Under the pieces are notes generated by a model. The model made no database searches, was not told the origin of the DNA, and was given only the letters and a program-made list of their open reading frames with translations. DNA of 64,000 nt from Gammaproteobacteria bacterium (GTDB lineage Bacteria > Pseudomonadota > Gammaproteobacteria > SZUA-140). The first letter of the stretch is position 1, and every line of letters starts with the position of its first letter. Shown here one piece after another: positions 49,873 through 57,078 of the stretch. The stretch lies in NCBI GenBank assembly GCA_026981935.1, contig JALSIC010000002.1, positions 5,281 through 69,280 on the forward strand, given 5' to 3'. The position numbers and the translations under genes are program-made.

Positions 49873-50649
49873 TCACTCATCATCCATCCCGCCGCCGCGG
49901 CGCAACACCTGCTGCAAGGGCTCCAGCAGATCCATGGGGAGGGGAAAGACGATGGTGGAACTCTTGTCCCCCGCGATCTCGGTGAGCGTCTGCAGATAGC
50001 GCAACTGCAGGGCCTGGGATTGACGGGACAGGATCTGCGAGGCCTCCAGCAGTTTCTGCGAGGCCTGCAGCTCGCCCTCGGCATGGATGATCTTGGCGCG
50101 CCGCTCGCGCTCCGCCTCCGCCTGGCGGGCAATGGCGCGGATCATGCTCTCGTCGATGTCCACGTGCTTGATCTCCACGTTGGCCACCTTGATACCCCAC
50201 GCGTCTGTCTGCTGGTCCAGGATCGCCTGGATGTCCCTGTTGAGCTTGTCCCGCTCCGAGAGCATCTCGTCCAGTTCGTGCTGGCCCAGCACGGAACGCA
50301 GCGTGGTCTGGGCCAGCTGGCTGGTGGCCATGTCGTAGTTTTCCACCTGGATGATGGCCTTCTCGGGATCGATGACGCGGTAATAGATCACCGCATTCAC
50401 CTTCACCGAGACGTTGTCCTTGGAAATGACATCCTGGCTGGGCACATCCATGACGATGGTGCGCAGATCCACGCGACGCATCTGCTGGATGTAGGGTATC
50501 ACCAGGCGGATGCCGGGCCCCTTGACCTTCCAGAAATGACCGAAAGTGAATACCACACCCCGTTCATACTCGAAGATGATGCGGATAGCGGTGGCGAAAA
50601 AGGCGATCACCACCCCCACGATGATGTAAATGGCCGTTGCACTGATCAT
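49873..50649 (-). CDS. SPFH/stomatin-like (slipin) protein
   Basis: [42 protein letters not shown]. Confidence 0.93.
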
Positions 50650-52028
50650 TGCCGCTCTCCTTTTCCGCTGGATTGTTCGACAGGCTCCACCACCAGGGTC
50701 AAGCCATCCACTTCCACGATCCGCACCCGCTGCCCCGGCACCAGGGGGTGCTGTGCGCGCGCAGCCCAGGACTCGCTGTGCACTCTTACCCGCCCTTCAC
50801 AACCCCCTCCCTCGATCACCTTGGCCTCGATCACCTCGCCCTCGCTGTGCAACAGCTCCTCCACGCCGCTGACCACCGGGCGGCGCCGCGCCTTTACCAC
50901 CATGGCGATGACCAGCATGAAAAAGGCGGCGCTGAGCAGGGCGAAGGCCCCGATGAGGGGAATGGAGATTCCATAACCCGGCACGTCCGTGTCCAGGAGC
51001 ATGATGGAACCGATGACGAAGGCGATCACGCCGCCGATGCCGAGGGCGCCGAAACTGGGCACGAACACCTCGGCGATCATGAAGGCGATACCCAGCAGCA
51101 TCAGCGCCAGCCCGGCATAGTTGATGGGCAGCACCTGGAAGGCGAACAGGGCCAGCAGCAGCGAGATGGTGCCCACCACGCCGGGCAGGATCATACCGGG
51201 GCTGGCAAATTCATAGATCAGGCCGTAGATCCCGATGAGCATGAGGATGTAGGCCACGTTGGGATCGGTGATGAGGGCCAGCAGCCGGGTGCGCCAGTCG
51301 GGTGCCTGACGCTCCACGGTCACACCCTGCGTCGCCAGCGTCACCTCCCGCCCCAGCACCTGCACCTCGCGGCCATCGAGCTGTGCCAGAAGGTCCGCCA
51401 GATCGCCGGCCAGCAGCTCGATCACCCCCGCGGCCCGGGCCTCCTCGGCGGAAAGGCTGACACCCTCGCGTACCGCCCGTTCCGCCCAGTCGGCATTGCG
51501 CCCCCGCATCTGGGCCAGCCCGCGGATGTAGGCCACGGCGTCATTGACGATTTTCCGGCTCATGGCATCGCGGGGCGATTCACCTCCAGCCCCGTCTTGC
51601 TCTTCTTCCTTCCCTTGCGCCCCCTTGTCCCTCCCGCCACCGGGCATGCCGCCCAGCTGCACGGGCGTGGCGGCACCCAGGCTGGTGGCAGGCGCCATGG
51701 CCGCCACATGCGTGGCATACAGGATATAAGTACCGGCGCTGGCGGCCCGTGCCCCGCCAGGGGCGACGAAACCCACCACCGGCAATGGGGAGGCAAGGAT
51801 GTCCTGCACGATATCGCGCATGGCGGTATCCAGTCCCCCCGGCGTATCCAGCCGCAACACGATCAGCCGCGCACCCCGCTCAGCCGCCCGCCGCAGCCCC
51901 CGCCCCACGTAATCCGCCGTGGCCGGCCCGATAGCCCCCTCCACCTCCAGCACCACCACCAGGGGGCGATCGACAGGTACCACGGGCGCCTGCTGGGCCA
52001 TCACCCACGATGGCAGCCACCACAGCAT
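50646..52028 (-). CDS. nfeD: NfeD family membrane-bound serine protease (long form)
   Basis: LDTPGG, AASAG, GAATPV, C-terminal OB-fold; overlaps the SPFH start. Confidence 0.92.
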
Positions 52029-52164
52029 CAACACACCGAGATGAAAGGGGGTGGGAAATGAGACACGAAACACGCGGGCACCTCCTCATTGCACCGACGC
52101 CTACCATGATACGCCCAATGGCGCAGAAATGTCGGTTGAGAGAAAGGAGATGACGAAGGGGCGC

Positions 52165-53508
52165 TCAGTGTCGTGCCAGGCACAGGGCCAGGCGGGCACC
52201 GCCCATGGGAGCTGCTTCGATGCGACATTCGCCTCCGTAGGCAGCGGCGATGTCCTGCACCATGGCAAGACCGATGCCATGGCCGGGCACGGTGTCGTCG
52301 CCGCGTGCGCCCCGCTGCAACAGGCGCTGGACCGCGTCGGCTGCAATGCCGGGACCGTCGTCGTCCACCACGATCTCCAGCCCCCGGTCCACCTCGCGCG
52401 CCGTCACCGCGACCCTGCCGCGGCACCACTTGCAGGCATTGTCCAGGAGATTGCCCAGCATCTCCATGAGGTCGGCCTCGTCGCCGGCGAAACGCAGCGC
52501 GTCGGGCACCTCGATCTCCCAGGCGATGTCCTTGTCGGCATAGACCTTGTCCAGGGCCTGGACCACCTTCTCCACCAGGGGACGCACCTCAACCGGCGCC
52601 GCCATCACCGAGGGACCCGAAGTGGCACCCCGTTGAAGCTGGTATTCGATGATGCGTGACATGCGCGCGACCTGCTCCTCCACCACGCGGCGCAGCTCCT
52701 CGGGTGAAGACGGGCTCTCCACCGTGCTGCGCAGCAGCGCGAGGGGGGTCTTGAGACTGTGGGCGAGATCGTCGAGGGCGTGGCGGAAACGGCGCAGGTG
52801 TTCACGCTCACTGTGCACCAGGGCGTTGAGATTGTCGGTGAGCGCCTGCAGTTCGCGGGGATACCGGCCTTCCAGCCGGGTCTTGATCCCGGCCTCGATG
52901 TCGCGCAATTCGGCGGCCACCTGACGCAGGGGGCGCAGGCCCCAGCGCAGGATGAGGCCCTGGACCGCCAGGAGCACCACCGCCACCATGCCCAGCGCGC
53001 CCCACAGGGTGCGGCGGAAACCGCGGATGTCCGCTTCCAGCGTATCCAGCACCTCCGCAACGCTGAAGGTGTAGCTGCGCGCCGGCCCGGCCGCCTCCTG
53101 CCAGCTCACGCCGAGGTTGAAGCTGTAGAGACGCAGACCACCGGGCGTCTCCAGCTGCTGGAAGCGGCGCTCGCCACGGCGCAGGCCACCGGGAAAGGGA
53201 ATCGCCAGCCCCGCCGCCGAGGGTGACACCCACGCATAACGGCCGTCGTTGCGCAGCACCTGGCCATAGAGACCGGAACCCGGCGTGAACAGGCGCGGAA
53301 TGGGCAGGGCGTTGGTGATGTGGACCTCCCCCTTGGCATCGGGCTCCATGACCGCCACCAGGGCATAGGCGTAACCCTGCAGGCGCTCCTGCAGGGCCGC
53401 CTCGGCACTGTGCCGGTAGGCACTGTCCAGCACCAGGCCGGTGATGCCGAAAAAGGCCGCCAGCACCGTCGTGGCCGCCAGCAGGATGCGCGTGTGCAGA
53501 GAAGCCAT
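52165..53508 (-). CDS. PhoQ/CarS-like sensor histidine kinase
   Basis: Two TMs, HAMP, DLAHSLKTPL, GNLLDNACK, DDDGPG, GHGIGL. Confidence 0.9.
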   Translation of the reverse strand: MASLHTRILLAATTVLAAFFGITGLVLDSAYRHSAEAALQERLQGYAYALVAVMEPDAKGEVHITNALPIPRLFTPGSGLYGQVLRNDGRYAWVSPSAAGLAIPFPGGLRRGERRFQQLETPGGLRLYSFNLGVSWQEAAGPARSYTFSVAEVLDTLEADIRGFRRTLWGALGMVAVVLLAVQGLILRWGLRPLRQVAAELRDIEAGIKTRLEGRYPRELQALTDNLNALVHSEREHLRRFRHALDDLAHSLKTPLALLRSTVESPSSPEELRRVVEEQVARMSRIIEYQLQRGATSGPSVMAAPVEVRPLVEKVVQALDKVYADKDIAWEIEVPDALRFAGDEADLMEMLGNLLDNACKWCRGRVAVTAREVDRGLEIVVDDDGPGIAADAVQRLLQRGARGDDTVPGHGIGLAMVQDIAAAYGGECRIEAAPMGGARLALCLARH

Positions 53509-54192
53509 TCAGGCGTCGCTCCGCGGCAGGGTGAAGCGATACCCCCGCCCGCGCAGCGTCTCGATGGGCTGCAGGCGGCCCGCCGGATCCAGCTTGCGTC
53601 GCAGGCGGGCAATGAAGACCTCGATCACGTTGCTGTCGCGGTCGTAGTCCTGATCGTAGAGATGTTCGGTGAGCTCGGTCTTGGAGATCACCTCGCCGCT
53701 ATGGAGCATGAGATATTCCAGGGCCTTGTACTCATAGGCGGTCAGATCCACGGCATGTCCGTCCACCGTGACCGCCTGGCGCCTCAGATCCAGGCTCACC
53801 GGCCCGCAGCGCAGCAGGGAACGGCTCCAGCCCGCGGCGCGGCGCAGCAGGGCCTTGAGCCTGGCCAGCAGTTCCTCCATGTGAAATGGCTTCACCACGT
53901 AGTCGTCTGCACCGGCATCCAGCCCTTCCACCTTCTCCTGCCAGCGGCCCCGCGCGGTGAGAATGAGAATGGGGAAGCGCCGCCCTTCCTCCCGCAGGCG
54001 CCGGATCACCTCGATGCCCGACAGGCGCGGCAGGCCCAGATCCACCACGGCCACGTCGAATGGATACTCGCGCCCCAGATAGAGGCCTTCCTCCCCATCG
54101 GCGGCGGCATCCACGGCATAGCCCGCTGCCTTGAGGCGCGCCGCAAGCTGCTCCCGCAGGGAAGGCTCGTCCTCGATCACCAGGATGCGCAT
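53509..54192 (-). CDS. OmpR/PhoP-family response regulator
   Basis: MRILVIEDE, VDLGLP, GADDYVVKPF, ETLRGRGY. Confidence 0.93.
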   Translation of the reverse strand: MRILVIEDEPSLREQLAARLKAAGYAVDAAADGEEGLYLGREYPFDVAVVDLGLPRLSGIEVIRRLREEGRRFPILILTARGRWQEKVEGLDAGADDYVVKPFHMEELLARLKALLRRAAGWSRSLLRCGPVSLDLRRQAVTVDGHAVDLTAYEYKALEYLMLHSGEVISKTELTEHLYDQDYDRDSNVIEVFIARLRRKLDPAGRLQPIETLRGRGYRFTLPRSDA

Positions 54193-54313
54193 GGCACGCA
54201 GGGGGCAAGGAACAGGCAAGGAAGAACGGACACGGAACCTGCCCTTTCTCTCTCAGGCTTCATCGATGACTGCTCGCATGTCCGTCATTGGACAGCGCTT
54301 CTTCGCCGATGTC

Positions 54314-54345
54314 AAAAAGGGGCAAGGCCCGATGCCTTGCCCCTT
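54314..54345 (-). terminator. Rho-independent terminator of the cytochrome c gene
   Basis: 12-bp stem AAGGGGCAAGGC/GCCTTGCCCCTT with a T-run on the minus strand. Confidence 0.7.
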
Positions 54346-54364
54346 CTCCGTTGCCTCCCGCCTT

Positions 54365-54736
54365 TTACTTCGCAAGGGACAGGACGAAATCCACCAGCTT
54401 CTCGATATCGGCATCCGCCACGCGCGGCGAGTAGGGCGGCATGGGCACCCCGCCGGTGACCTCCGTCCAGTTGCCCTTGCCACCGGCCTTGACCTTGGCG
54501 ATGAGAAGCTCGCGGGCGCCGGCATCGCCCTTGTAACGGGCTGAAACGTCCTGCCAGGCCGGCCCCACCACCTTCTTCTCCACGCTGTGGCAGGCCAGGC
54601 AGCCGCTCTTCTTCGCCAGCGCCAGTGCATCCTCGTCCGCCAGTGCCGTGGCCGGCAGGGCCATGACGATCAGCAGGGCGAAACCAAACAGGGCACCCAG
54701 CACGGCCAGTCCGAAATTCAAGTTGGCATGTTTCAT
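54365..54736 (-). CDS. Periplasmic monoheme cytochrome c (c551/c552-like)
   Basis: Signal peptide, CLACH, VVGPAW, axial Met in GVPMPP. Confidence 0.93.
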   Translation of the reverse strand: MKHANLNFGLAVLGALFGFALLIVMALPATALADEDALALAKKSGCLACHSVEKKVVGPAWQDVSARYKGDAGARELLIAKVKAGGKGNWTEVTGGVPMPPYSPRVADADIEKLVDFVLSLAK

Positions 54737-54910
54737 GGCATTTCTCCTCTCAATGAGCTGACTCCTTGAATTCACCCCGACAGCCCTTCGGCTCCAGGGA
54801 CAGGATCACTGTACGCCCGGGCGCCTGAACCGAAGCTGAATCCGGTCCGCCCCCATCTTTTCCTGTTTCCCGTCACCCTCCCGGCCATGCGCTGCCCCCC
54901 ATTGCCCCCA

Positions 54911-54939
54911 TTGAAAGTTCTCATAAAGTTCTCTATCCT
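54911..54939 (+). promoter_or_regulatory. Sigma70-like promoter (TTGAAA-N17-TATCCT) with a GTTC-N7-GTTC LexA box in the spacer
   Basis: -35 at 54911-54916; GTTC at 54917-54920 and 54928-54931; -10 at 54934-54939; lexA ATG at 54946. Confidence 0.7.
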
Positions 54940-54945
54940 GAAAAC

Positions 54946-55566
54946 ATGGATCACGATGATGACACACTCGTCCTGCTCGCTCCCCGGGCGCGGGATACTT
55001 ACGAATTCATCCGGCATTTCTTTGCCCGCCACGGCCGGGCCCCGCTGCTGACGGAAATCGCGGCGGGACTCGGTATCCGCTCCAAGGGCACGGCACACCG
55101 TTACGTGCAGGCACTGGCCGAAGCCGGGCTCATCGAGCAGCGGCGGGGCCGGCACCGGGGGATACGCCTGCGCGAACACACATCTGCCACCACCCTGCCT
55201 CTCCTGGGCCGCATTGCCGCCGGTCGCCCCATCGAGGCCATCCCCGACGAGGATTGCGTGGACCTGAGCCAGTTCTTCATGGGACCCGGCCGTTTCATCC
55301 TGCGGGTACAAGGCGATTCCATGGTGGAAGCGGGCATCCTCGACGGCGACATGGTGGTGGTGGAGCGATGCGAGACCCCTGCCGACGGCGACATCGTGGT
55401 GGCGCTCATCGACAACGAAGAGGCCACCCTGAAATACCTGCGCCGCAATCGCGACGGCAGCATCACCCTGGTGCCGGCCAATGCCCGCCTCGCCCCCGTC
55501 ACCTACAACGCGGAACGCCTGCGTATCCAGGGCGTGGTGGTGGGTCAGTTACGCAGCTACCGGTGA
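54946..55566 (+). CDS. lexA: LexA repressor (non-enterobacterial recognition helix)
   Basis: wHTH, IAAG cleavage site, GDSM catalytic Ser, TLK catalytic Lys. Confidence 0.93.
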   Translation: MDHDDDTLVLLAPRARDTYEFIRHFFARHGRAPLLTEIAAGLGIRSKGTAHRYVQALAEAGLIEQRRGRHRGIRLREHTSATTLPLLGRIAAGRPIEAIPDEDCVDLSQFFMGPGRFILRVQGDSMVEAGILDGDMVVVERCETPADGDIVVALIDNEEATLKYLRRNRDGSITLVPANARLAPVTYNAERLRIQGVVVGQLRSYR

Positions 55567-55572
55567 GCACCC

Positions 55573-56823
55573 ATGTCCCCCGCGCTCGATCGCTGCCCCC
55601 GCCTCTGGCCCCGTGCCATCATCCACATGGACATGAACGCCTTCTTCGCCGCGGTGGAACAGCGCGACGACCCGGACCTGCGGGGCCGCCCCGTGGCCGT
55701 CACCAACGGCCTGCAAGGCACCTGCATCATCACCTGCTCCTACGAGGCCCGCACCTTCGGCATCCACACCGGGATGCGCCTGACCGCGGCACGCCGCCTG
55801 TGCCCGGCACTCGTCCAGCGCCCGGCGCGACCGCGCGTCTATGCCCGGGTCTCGGCGGCCATCATGACGGCCCTGCGGGACCGGGTCAGCCCGGACATGG
55901 AAGTCTTCTCCGTGGACGAGGCCTTTCTCGACGTGACCCGCTGTCAGCGCCTCCACGGCACCCCCCTGCGCATGGCCCGCATGGTGAAGGCCATCGTGCG
56001 CGAGGTCAGTGGCGGCCTGAGCTGTTCCGTGGGTGTGAGCGGCGACAAGACCACCGCCAAGTTCGCCGCCAAGCTGGAGAAACCCGACGGCCTCACCGTC
56101 ATCCCTCCCTGGGAGGCCCGCGAACGCCTGCGGGACATCCCTGTCACCGCCCTGTGCGGTGTCGCCGAAGGCATCGGCCGCTATCTCGCCCGCCATGGGG
56201 CGCGGACCTGCGGCGACGTGGCGGCACTGCCGGTGAGTGTCCTGGCGCGCCGCTTCGGCAACCTGGGACGGCGCATCTGGCTCATGTGCCAGGGCCGGGA
56301 CCCGGACCGGATCCATCTGGACACGCCGCCGCCCAAGAGCCTGGGCCACGGGAAGGTGGTGCCACCTGCCACCCGCGACCGCGCGCTCCTGCTCACTTAT
56401 CTGCAGCACATGAGCGAGAAGGTGGCGACGCGCCTGCGGCGCCATGAACTGGAGGCGCAGGTGTTCTTCATCGGGCTGCGGGGTGAATCGGCATGGCTGG
56501 GAGAGCGCCTGCAGACGGCCGTGCCGGTCTGCGACGGCGGCGCCATCTTTGCGCTGTGCCGTGATTTCATGGACAGGGCCTGGCACAACGAACCGGTCTT
56601 CCAGGTCCAGGTCACGGCGCTCGCACCGCGTCCCCGGCGCCTGCAGCTGACCCTGTTCGAGGAAACGGCATCCCCCAGTGATGCACTCAATGTGGTGATG
56701 GACGAAATCAACCGCTGTTATGGCGAGTTCACCATTGCGCCGGCCCGGCTGTTGCAACGCTCCACCATGCCCGATGTGATTGCCCCCGCCTGGAAACCGG
56801 CGGGACACAGACAGAGCCTCTGA
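55573..56823 (+). CDS. dinB: Y-family DNA polymerase IV
   Basis: HMDMNAFFAAVE, SYEARTFG, SVDEAFLD, clamp-binding QLTLF. Confidence 0.92.
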   Translation: MSPALDRCPRLWPRAIIHMDMNAFFAAVEQRDDPDLRGRPVAVTNGLQGTCIITCSYEARTFGIHTGMRLTAARRLCPALVQRPARPRVYARVSAAIMTALRDRVSPDMEVFSVDEAFLDVTRCQRLHGTPLRMARMVKAIVREVSGGLSCSVGVSGDKTTAKFAAKLEKPDGLTVIPPWEARERLRDIPVTALCGVAEGIGRYLARHGARTCGDVAALPVSVLARRFGNLGRRIWLMCQGRDPDRIHLDTPPPKSLGHGKVVPPATRDRALLLTYLQHMSEKVATRLRRHELEAQVFFIGLRGESAWLGERLQTAVPVCDGGAIFALCRDFMDRAWHNEPVFQVQVTALAPRPRRLQLTLFEETASPSDALNVVMDEINRCYGEFTIAPARLLQRSTMPDVIAPAWKPAGHRQSL

Positions 56824-56904
56824 ACCGCTGTCGTCAAAGGCCAGAGAGGGAAAACCCCGTAACCGGGTAACTTTCGTGGTCGGCCTGCCAGTGACCCATT
56901 ACTA

Positions 56905-57078
56905 TCAATCCGGATCGACGGCTTCCACAGCAGTTTCCTGACGCGCCTGGGTCCGGGACCGGGCCTCCGCTTCTTCCGCCTCGCGGCGTTTCATATTGCG
57001 CCAGTCGCCATAGGCGATGAGGCCCAGCAACAAGGTCAGCAGGGAGATGACCACGATTTGCAGAATGATCATGCCCAT
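56905..57078 (-). CDS. Small single-TM hypothetical protein
   Basis: Hydrophobic N-terminal helix then charged tail; short ORF only. Confidence 0.45.
   Translation of the reverse strand: MGMIILQIVVISLLTLLLGLIAYGDWRNMKRREAEEAEARSRTQARQETAVEAVDPD

Follow-up and report, generated by a model that had tools for sequence, protein, structure and literature searches.

The present study describes a two-gene operon in a 64-kb stretch of gammaproteobacterial DNA (hereafter, the window), the source material of which is a hydrothermal-vent metagenome. The operon joins lexA, the gene of a self-cleaving repressor, to the gene of a Pol IV-like Y-family DNA polymerase, and its promoter carries a direct repeat of the hexamer GTTCTC. 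Very probably, it represents a chromosomal, vertically inherited, self-repressed DNA-damage operon that couples the repressor to a translesion polymerase. Previously, GTTC-N7-GTTC has been described as the LexA box of Alphaproteobacteria (PMC8565304, PMC3323433), and these two papers do state what the original prediction, drawn from the letters of the window, had taken as established. That prediction envisioned an autoregulated lexA-polymerase operon under a GTTC-N7-GTTC operator instead of CTGT-N8-ACAG. Conservation at orthologous loci bears out the operator, and the conserved box in the operon's own promoter supports the putative autoregulation.

The whole promoter region of lexA reads cattgcccccaTTGAAAGTTCTCATAAAGTTCTCTATCCTgaaaacATG. 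As originally described, AAAGTTCTC is present twice (54914-54922 and 54925-54933) with a period of 11 bp, and GTTC-TCATAAA-GTTC at 54917-54931, written GTTCTCATAAAGTTC, fits the GTTC-N7-GTTC pattern. A promoter scan of positions 54700-57000 returned exactly one sigma-70-like site, TTGAAA and TATCCT around a 17-nt spacer, which agrees with the proposed placement of the repeat; the hexamer repeat occupies this spacer exactly (Table 1). The only in-frame ATG of lexA, at 54946, follows the end of the -10 hexamer by 6 nt. Therefore, the lexA transcript is probably leaderless or nearly so, and no Shine-Dalgarno sequence is present before the ATG (54934-54948). Two relatives whose LexA is 82% identical (L082 and L083) repeat this geometry as TATACT, 7 nt and ATG; more distant relatives possess a leader, which carries a second, inverted box.

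Within the window, bare GTTC-N7-GTTC is not distinctive, with 5 matches against 1.26 expected. The full GTTCTC-N5-GTTCTC, with one mismatch allowed, matches once against an expectation of 0.15, and the operator, scoring 28.3 bits, is the sole match of at least 12 bits to the position weight matrix in 64 kb. The absence of CTGT-N8-ACAG that had been noted at the lexA promoter extends to the entire 64-kb window, in which this palindrome has no match. Thus, the chance evidence inside the window alone is modest, and it is the conservation across genomes that is decisive.

Homologues of the window LexA number in the thousands. Among the matches in species-representative genomes, at least 597 stretches encode a relative, and the best 80 loci were analysed; the named taxa among them include Methylophaga, Thiohalophilus, Sedimenticola, Methylococcaceae, Ectothiorhodospiraceae and tubeworm symbionts. 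The closest named homologues (62-82% identity) belong to uncultured Gammaproteobacteria, Sulfuriflexus and Ca. Thiodiazotropha. The repressor is a member of a large LexA family of non-enteric Gammaproteobacteria comprising sulfur oxidisers, methylotrophs, methanotrophs and symbionts. Of the 80 loci, 54 have an exact GTTC-N7-GTTC in the 200 bp preceding lexA. The 18 kb of lexA promoter zones contain GTTCTC-N5-GTTC 72 times and the 556 kb of flanks 3 times, a 635-fold enrichment, and at least one box scoring 10 bits or more with the position weight matrix is present in 76 of 78 loci. Conservation of the motif upstream of orthologues was one of the points on which the original prediction had agreed to be judged, and it is strong.

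Usually, the box is present twice, in opposite orientations, giving four hexamers ('+-' pattern in 38 loci). The window and its closest relatives possess the upstream box only, with the ATG directly after the -10 hexamer. The consensus of the upstream box, TTgaa.GTTCTCtaaatGTTCTCTAtt, includes the promoter hexamers: among 39 upstream (+) boxes of orthologous loci, TTG stands at the -35 position in 24 and TA follows the second hexamer in 30. Therefore, the box is embedded between -35 and -10 across the family. When the window was aligned with loci whose LexA is 64-82% identical (alignment A2), TTGAAAGTTCTC..AAAGTTCTCTAT.CT was the only conserved intergenic island, the rest having diverged fully.

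Since core promoter elements, conserved in their own right, overlap with the repeat, one could ascribe it to the promoter or its spacer, or to a regulator other than LexA. This is hardly credible, because most orthologues have their second, inverted box downstream of the -10 hexamer, and this box has no promoter hexamers. Furthermore, the motif accompanies lexA genes in neighbourhoods that are otherwise unrelated, its half-site changes along with the recognition helix of LexA, and a control lexA locus of the alphaproteobacterial type has the same kind of repeat (both described below). In a few relatives, a compact palindrome is found in place of the direct repeat: GTTCTC-N6-GAGAAC just upstream of lexA in L051 and L059, and GTTCTATAATAGAAC in L078. 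From these palindromes, the arrangement of half-sites seems flexible in this LexA family.

The protein is a LexA by the NCBIfam equivalog model TIGR00498 (150.3 bits, above the cut-off of 110.95) and has the Pfam domains PF01726 (LexA_DNA_bind, a winged helix) and PF00717 (Peptidase_S24). Its A92-G93, S125 and K163 align with A84-G85, S119 and K156 of E. coli LexA (PDB 7b5g/1jhh) and are invariant in the family alignment (A1). The cleavage and catalytic residues are thus in place, as had been asserted, and the assertion of a non-enterobacterial recognition helix holds as well: structure-based alignment sets SKGTAHRYVQAL in the window LexA against SPNAAEEHLKAL in E. coli LexA. Across the family, the helix follows the pattern S-K/R-G-x-x-H-R/K. 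All the positions that contact bases in E. coli LexA (PDB 3JSO) are replaced here, namely N41 by G, A42 by T, E44 by H and E45 by R.

The helix and the half-site vary together. Where position 2 of the helix is Lys or Arg (K47 in the window), GTTCT pairs are present in 53 of 65 loci. Where it is Gln or Pro, in the Methylophaga clade, none of 12 loci has GTTCT pairs and A/T-TTCT pairs occur instead. The operators of this clade are TTTCTC-N5-TTTCTC or ATTCTC repeats, often as same-strand tandem boxes, e.g., TTTTCTCTATATTTTCTCTTCTCGGTTTTTTCTC. Fisher's test of the association between helix and half-site gave p = 7e-8, a value that derives from essentially one clade and includes no phylogenetic correction. 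The Methylophaga clade looks like a natural specificity switch.

These features suggest how the operon may work. The conserved box fills the spacer of the lexA promoter itself, which makes it a candidate operator for self-repression. A LexA dimer would bind the tandem hexamers GTTCTC-N5-GTTCTC, the 11-bp period of which would bring the two half-sites to the same side of the DNA helix. Since the site occupies the entire spacer between -35 and -10, bound LexA would cover it whole and exclude RNA polymerase. Upon DNA damage, RecA-stimulated self-cleavage at Ala92-Gly93 by the Ser125/Lys163 dyad would remove the repressor, and LexA and the polymerase would then both be made, probably from a leaderless transcript.

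The polymerase gene starts 6 bp past the end of lexA on the same strand, and the open reading frame coordinates agree with the gap given in the original prediction. Its product has the Pfam domains IMS (PF00817, 4.6e-42), IMS_C and IMS_HHH_1, and in the PDB it comes closest to Pol IV 7yll (E=2e-49). The motifs DMNAFFAAVE and SVDEAFLDV are intact, DMNAFFA and SVDEAF align with 7yll, and the catalytic motifs are conserved in 24 orthologues. A clamp-type motif, QLTLF, is located at residues 358-362, and Q..LF is kept in orthologues. This motif is internal, and a conserved C-terminal extension of 54 amino acids lies beyond it. The extension region (56640-56820 of the window, residues ~358-416) is strongly conserved, with the consensus N..MD.IN.RYGEF.LAPARLL.RS.MPNVIAPAWKP.GHR, and the extension has no match in Pfam. 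The protein scores below every NCBIfam cut-off for Pol IV; the closest is NF002677 (227.7 versus 256), and the top-scoring model is NF003015 (230.4 versus a cut-off of 367). Therefore, we call it Pol IV-like and not DinB proper. The earlier name dinB stands as regards the Y-family core, the active site and the clamp motif, and falls short at these cut-offs.

Two other identities were considered for the gene pair and rejected. UmuDC (Pol V) does not fit, as the UmuC model gives 80.4 against a cut-off of 431 and the upstream gene encodes a full LexA with a DNA-binding domain. A lexA2-imuA-imuB-dnaE2 cassette does not fit either, since imuA, imuB and dnaE2 are absent and a single Pol IV-like gene follows lexA. 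In 34 of the 80 loci, lexA is followed by the polymerase gene, which has the same orientation and mostly adjoins it. In the window, the next open reading frames are convergent and encode a small membrane protein and VanZ. Several relatives, and not the window, have a third gene of 140-147 codons right after the polymerase gene; the three of its products that were scanned (from L008, L026 and L033) have no match in Pfam.

Lateral acquisition of the cassette had been offered as one origin of this operator type. The gene order of the locus (histidine kinase, response regulator, cytochrome c, lexA, polymerase, small open reading frame, VanZ, FGGY kinase) recurs in relatives with an 82% identical LexA. 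The G+C content of the cassette (0.64-0.70) equals that of its flanks, and no mobile-element genes adjoin it. Therefore, lateral acquisition is not supported. Upstream of the operon (50646-54775) are genes for an NfeD-like membrane protein, a histidine kinase with an OmpR-type response regulator, and a small c-type cytochrome, the last divergent from lexA; all of these are syntenic in L082-L085.

A recent transfer from an alphaproteobacterium, bringing the operator type along, could be argued from the published alphaproteobacterial GTTC-N7-GTTC form (PMC8565304, PMC3323433) and from the helix S-K-x-x-x-H-R, which the window LexA has in common with the alphaproteobacterial type. We consider such a transfer very unlikely. 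Besides the native synteny and the flank-like composition, the named relatives among the at least 597 matched stretches are nearly all Gammaproteobacteria, and the close homologues bearing names are all gammaproteobacterial among the matches listed. Moreover, the alphaproteobacterial-type representative P0262 is only ~44% identical to the window LexA and has 232 amino acids with a longer linker, versus 206 here.

The nearest LexA families were sampled by 150 representatives. Two of these, P0242 and P0262, have the helix SKSG(I/V)HRLISAL and a length of 232-244 amino acids. The control locus of P0262 (L212) has the gene order trpC-moaC-moeA-lexA-comEC-gltX, with GTTCCACATTCGTTC before lexA. This order is the typical neighbourhood of an alphaproteobacterial lexA, and P0262 is assigned to the alphaproteobacterial type because of the neighbourhood and the box. 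In the tree, the P0242/P0262 pair, the window family, and a family from Sedimenticola, Methylotuvimicrobium and Competibacterales (helix SRGSLHKH, also with GTTC repeats) form one clade (86/84) that excludes the E. coli type and a family with S-x-A-T-V-H-K-H. Within this clade, the window family is a branch separate from the alphaproteobacterial pair, at ~44% identity, and the approximately unbiased (AU) test did not reject a union of the two. Thus, by sequence comparison, the window family appears to group, with moderate confidence, with alphaproteobacterial LexA rather than with the E. coli type. It is plausible that the direct-repeat specificity is common to both systems by descent.

How far the regulon reaches was considered from the neighbours of lexA in relatives, of which the polymerase gene, an mrfA-type gene and a cinA-recA operon speak for a damage regulon in the family. 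In five loci, a gene divergent from lexA, with a gap of 32-90 bp to the matched lexA segment, encodes a protein of ~800 amino acids with DEAD, Helicase_C and MrfA Zn-binding domains. It was considered as plsB, which takes this place in E. coli, and the Pfam domains identify it as an MrfA-type helicase instead. One MrfA-type helicase gene has a box of its own (L069). Such placement suggests that the mrfA-type gene is likely a regulon member in Sedimenticola/Competibacterales-type lineages. In Arenicellales-/Acidiferrobacterales-like contigs, lexA is divergent from cinA-thpR(LigT)-recA-recX-alaS, and the 37-140 bp region between lexA and the cinA-recA operon contains a sole GTTCTC-N5-GTTCTC box (22-25 bits), which begins 4-6 nt from the lexA ATG. 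With tblastn, recA was found only in L023; further recA loci came through the RecA homologues of relatives. The recA loci are mixed: the box is common to lexA and cinA-thpR-recA-recX where lexA adjoins and is absent at three stand-alone recA genes.

Searching metagenome contigs for GTTCTC-N5-GTTCTCTA gave 123 matches, of which 57 were intergenic and 8-10 of these stood before lexA homologues. The 20 other annotated neighbour genes were unrelated (mannose-1-phosphate guanylyltransferase, thiolase, TatC, transposases and others). In a Sedimenticolaceae contig (L080), a box of 25.6 bits is present at 1616-1638, ~650 bp downstream of lexA. No open reading frame of at least 80 codons follows it on the box strand, and a small damage-induced gene or RNA at this site is possible.

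Several of our observations weigh against a self-repressed operon headed by the main LexA of the genome. The 64-kb window has one box and no second site in the matrix scan. Three stand-alone recA loci of related lineages, which may have a LexA of another type, have neither a GTTCTC box nor CTGT-N8-ACAG, and in the cinA-recA contigs recA seems, on visual inspection, to have a box-free -10-like element of its own. From these recA loci, the regulon may be small. The metagenome scan returned no SOS gene other than lexA among the annotated neighbour genes, a pattern that is uninformative on other SOS genes because 14 specified bases are too noisy. The sequencing runs that contain lexA-region sequence are DNA runs, with no RNA runs among them. 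Finally, as the co-variation of helix and half-site rests on essentially one clade, uncorrected for phylogeny, it amounts to one or two evolutionary events.

Part of this evidence could also be explained if the window LexA were an accessory, LexA2-like protein with a minimal regulon, its own operon, while a second, canonical LexA ran the main SOS response through CTGT-N8-ACAG. The single box in 64 kb, the box-free stand-alone recA promoters and the concentration of metagenome matches at lexA would all agree with this. There are also precedents, since the LexA2 of Pseudomonas putida heads a lexA2-imuA-imuB-dnaE2 cassette with a non-canonical box, and Geobacter has LexA proteins that reportedly do not bind recA. 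We nevertheless consider an accessory role unlikely, as no canonical box is present in the window or at the three recA genes examined and the protein lies above the LexA equivalog cut-off. Besides, the family is represented by at least 597 matched stretches among species-representative genomes and keeps to conserved chromosomal positions, and in relatives its box is common to mrfA and cinA-thpR-recA-recX, unlike that of a self-contained cassette. Even with an accessory LexA, the operon would remain self-repressed, and the difference would lie in the rank of the window LexA alone. Therefore, the self-repressed DNA-damage operon, with its LexA probably the main one of the genome, is the reading that we retain.

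Table 1. Positions of the operon features in the window and of related features at loci of relatives (locus coordinates where a locus is named)
Feature	Position	Strand	Basis or remark
-35 hexamer TTGAAA of the lexA promoter	54911..54916	+	Promoter scan; abuts the first half-site
Predicted LexA operator GTTCTC-ATAAA-GTTCTC	54917..54933	+	Sequence, matrix score, conservation
Operator half-sites (two hexamers, direct repeat)	54917-54922, 54928-54933	+	Sequence
-10 hexamer TATCCT	54934..54939	+	Promoter scan
lexA, 206 aa	54946..55566	+	TIGR00498, Pfam, alignment to E. coli LexA
Pol IV-like Y-family DNA polymerase, 416 aa	55573..56823	+	Pfam, PDB match, motifs
Methylophaga-clade boxes	L011, L012, L019, L020, L024, L026, L029, L033, L034		~20-80 bp upstream of lexA
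Third gene after the polymerase gene	L008 4614-5045, L020 5858-6298, L022 4026-4448, L026 5891-6334, L027 2059-2487, L033 5854-6297		
MrfA-type helicase divergent from lexA	L052 1507-3969, L053, L057 1470-3914, L058, L068 1518-3935		
MrfA-type helicase with its own box	L069 127-2523		Box 2617-2639, 24.9 bits, 94 bp upstream
lexA / cinA-thpR-recA-recX-alaS loci	L206 2102-5534, L208 2073-5550, L210 2250-5566, L023 949-4306		

The system described here matches known LexA systems in its logic and differs from each of them in its parts. With alphaproteobacterial LexA (Rhodobacter, Rhizobium/Sinorhizobium, Caulobacter), it has in common the GTTC direct repeat of 11-bp period before lexA and the helix S-K-x-x-x-H-R. 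In contrast to the 232-244 amino acids of the alphaproteobacterial type, the window LexA has 206, with a short linker of E. coli length; its family uses a strict hexamer, GTTCTC, as half-site, most of the orthologues carry two inverted repeats, and the hosts are Gammaproteobacteria. E. coli LexA is a self-cleaving S24 repressor of itself and of a Pol IV-type polymerase, as is predicted for the window LexA, and the two agree in fold and catalytic residues. However, E. coli uses the palindrome CTGT-N8-ACAG where we find a direct repeat, and its lexA and polymerase genes are at separate loci whereas here they form a single operon.

The lexA2 cassette of P. putida also joins lexA to error-prone polymerase genes under a non-canonical box in a gammaproteobacterium. 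The present operon differs from it in its single Pol IV-like gene, its motif and its conserved chromosomal sites, and in a box that relatives have in common with the mrfA and cinA-recA operons. Sanchez-Alberola et al. (2015, J Bacteriol 197:2622) reportedly described a non-canonical LexA with a GAAC-N4-GTTC-like palindrome in Sideroxydans/Gallionella and related Betaproteobacteria. There, too, a lineage expected to use CTGT-N8-ACAG has another LexA and another motif; that motif is reportedly a palindrome and betaproteobacterial, whereas ours is a direct repeat. In the accessible literature, we found no paper on a gammaproteobacterial GTTC or GTTCTC LexA box or on this operon. What is new, therefore, is a LexA/SOS system with a class-atypical, alphaproteobacterial-like direct-repeat operator and a repressor-polymerase operon; the logic itself was already known.

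Beyond the operon itself, a wider reading can be put forward tentatively, and as a whole we would sooner doubt than accept it. According to it, the window family would be the sole primary SOS repressor of a large non-enteric gammaproteobacterial radiation (with Methylophaga, Thiohalophilus, Sedimenticola, Methylococcales, Arenicellales-/Acidiferrobacterales-like lineages and tubeworm symbionts among its named members) and would share its ancestry with the alphaproteobacterial system. In that case, the direct repeat would represent the older condition in Proteobacteria, and the CTGT-N8-ACAG box of E. coli would have arisen afterwards, as an innovation or a replacement, in some of the Gamma- and Betaproteobacteria. 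The G of GTTCTC would be recognised by the Lys or Arg at position 2 of the helix (K47 in the window).

Class-specific LexA boxes are the basis on which SOS regulons are predicted across whole genomes, for instance to infer stress-induced mutagenesis or prophage induction. If a large proportion of environmental Gammaproteobacteria do read GTTCTC direct repeats, their damage response escapes searches for CTGT-N8-ACAG altogether. The evolution of LexA specificity is concerned as well. A short-linker, direct-repeat LexA related to the alphaproteobacterial protein would shift the view of the direct repeat as an alphaproteobacterial peculiarity, and the co-variation of K/R with G and of Q/P with T provides a directly testable recognition rule. 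Furthermore, the operon hard-wires a translesion polymerase to the repressor gene. Therefore, mutagenic bypass would be induced with every SOS response.

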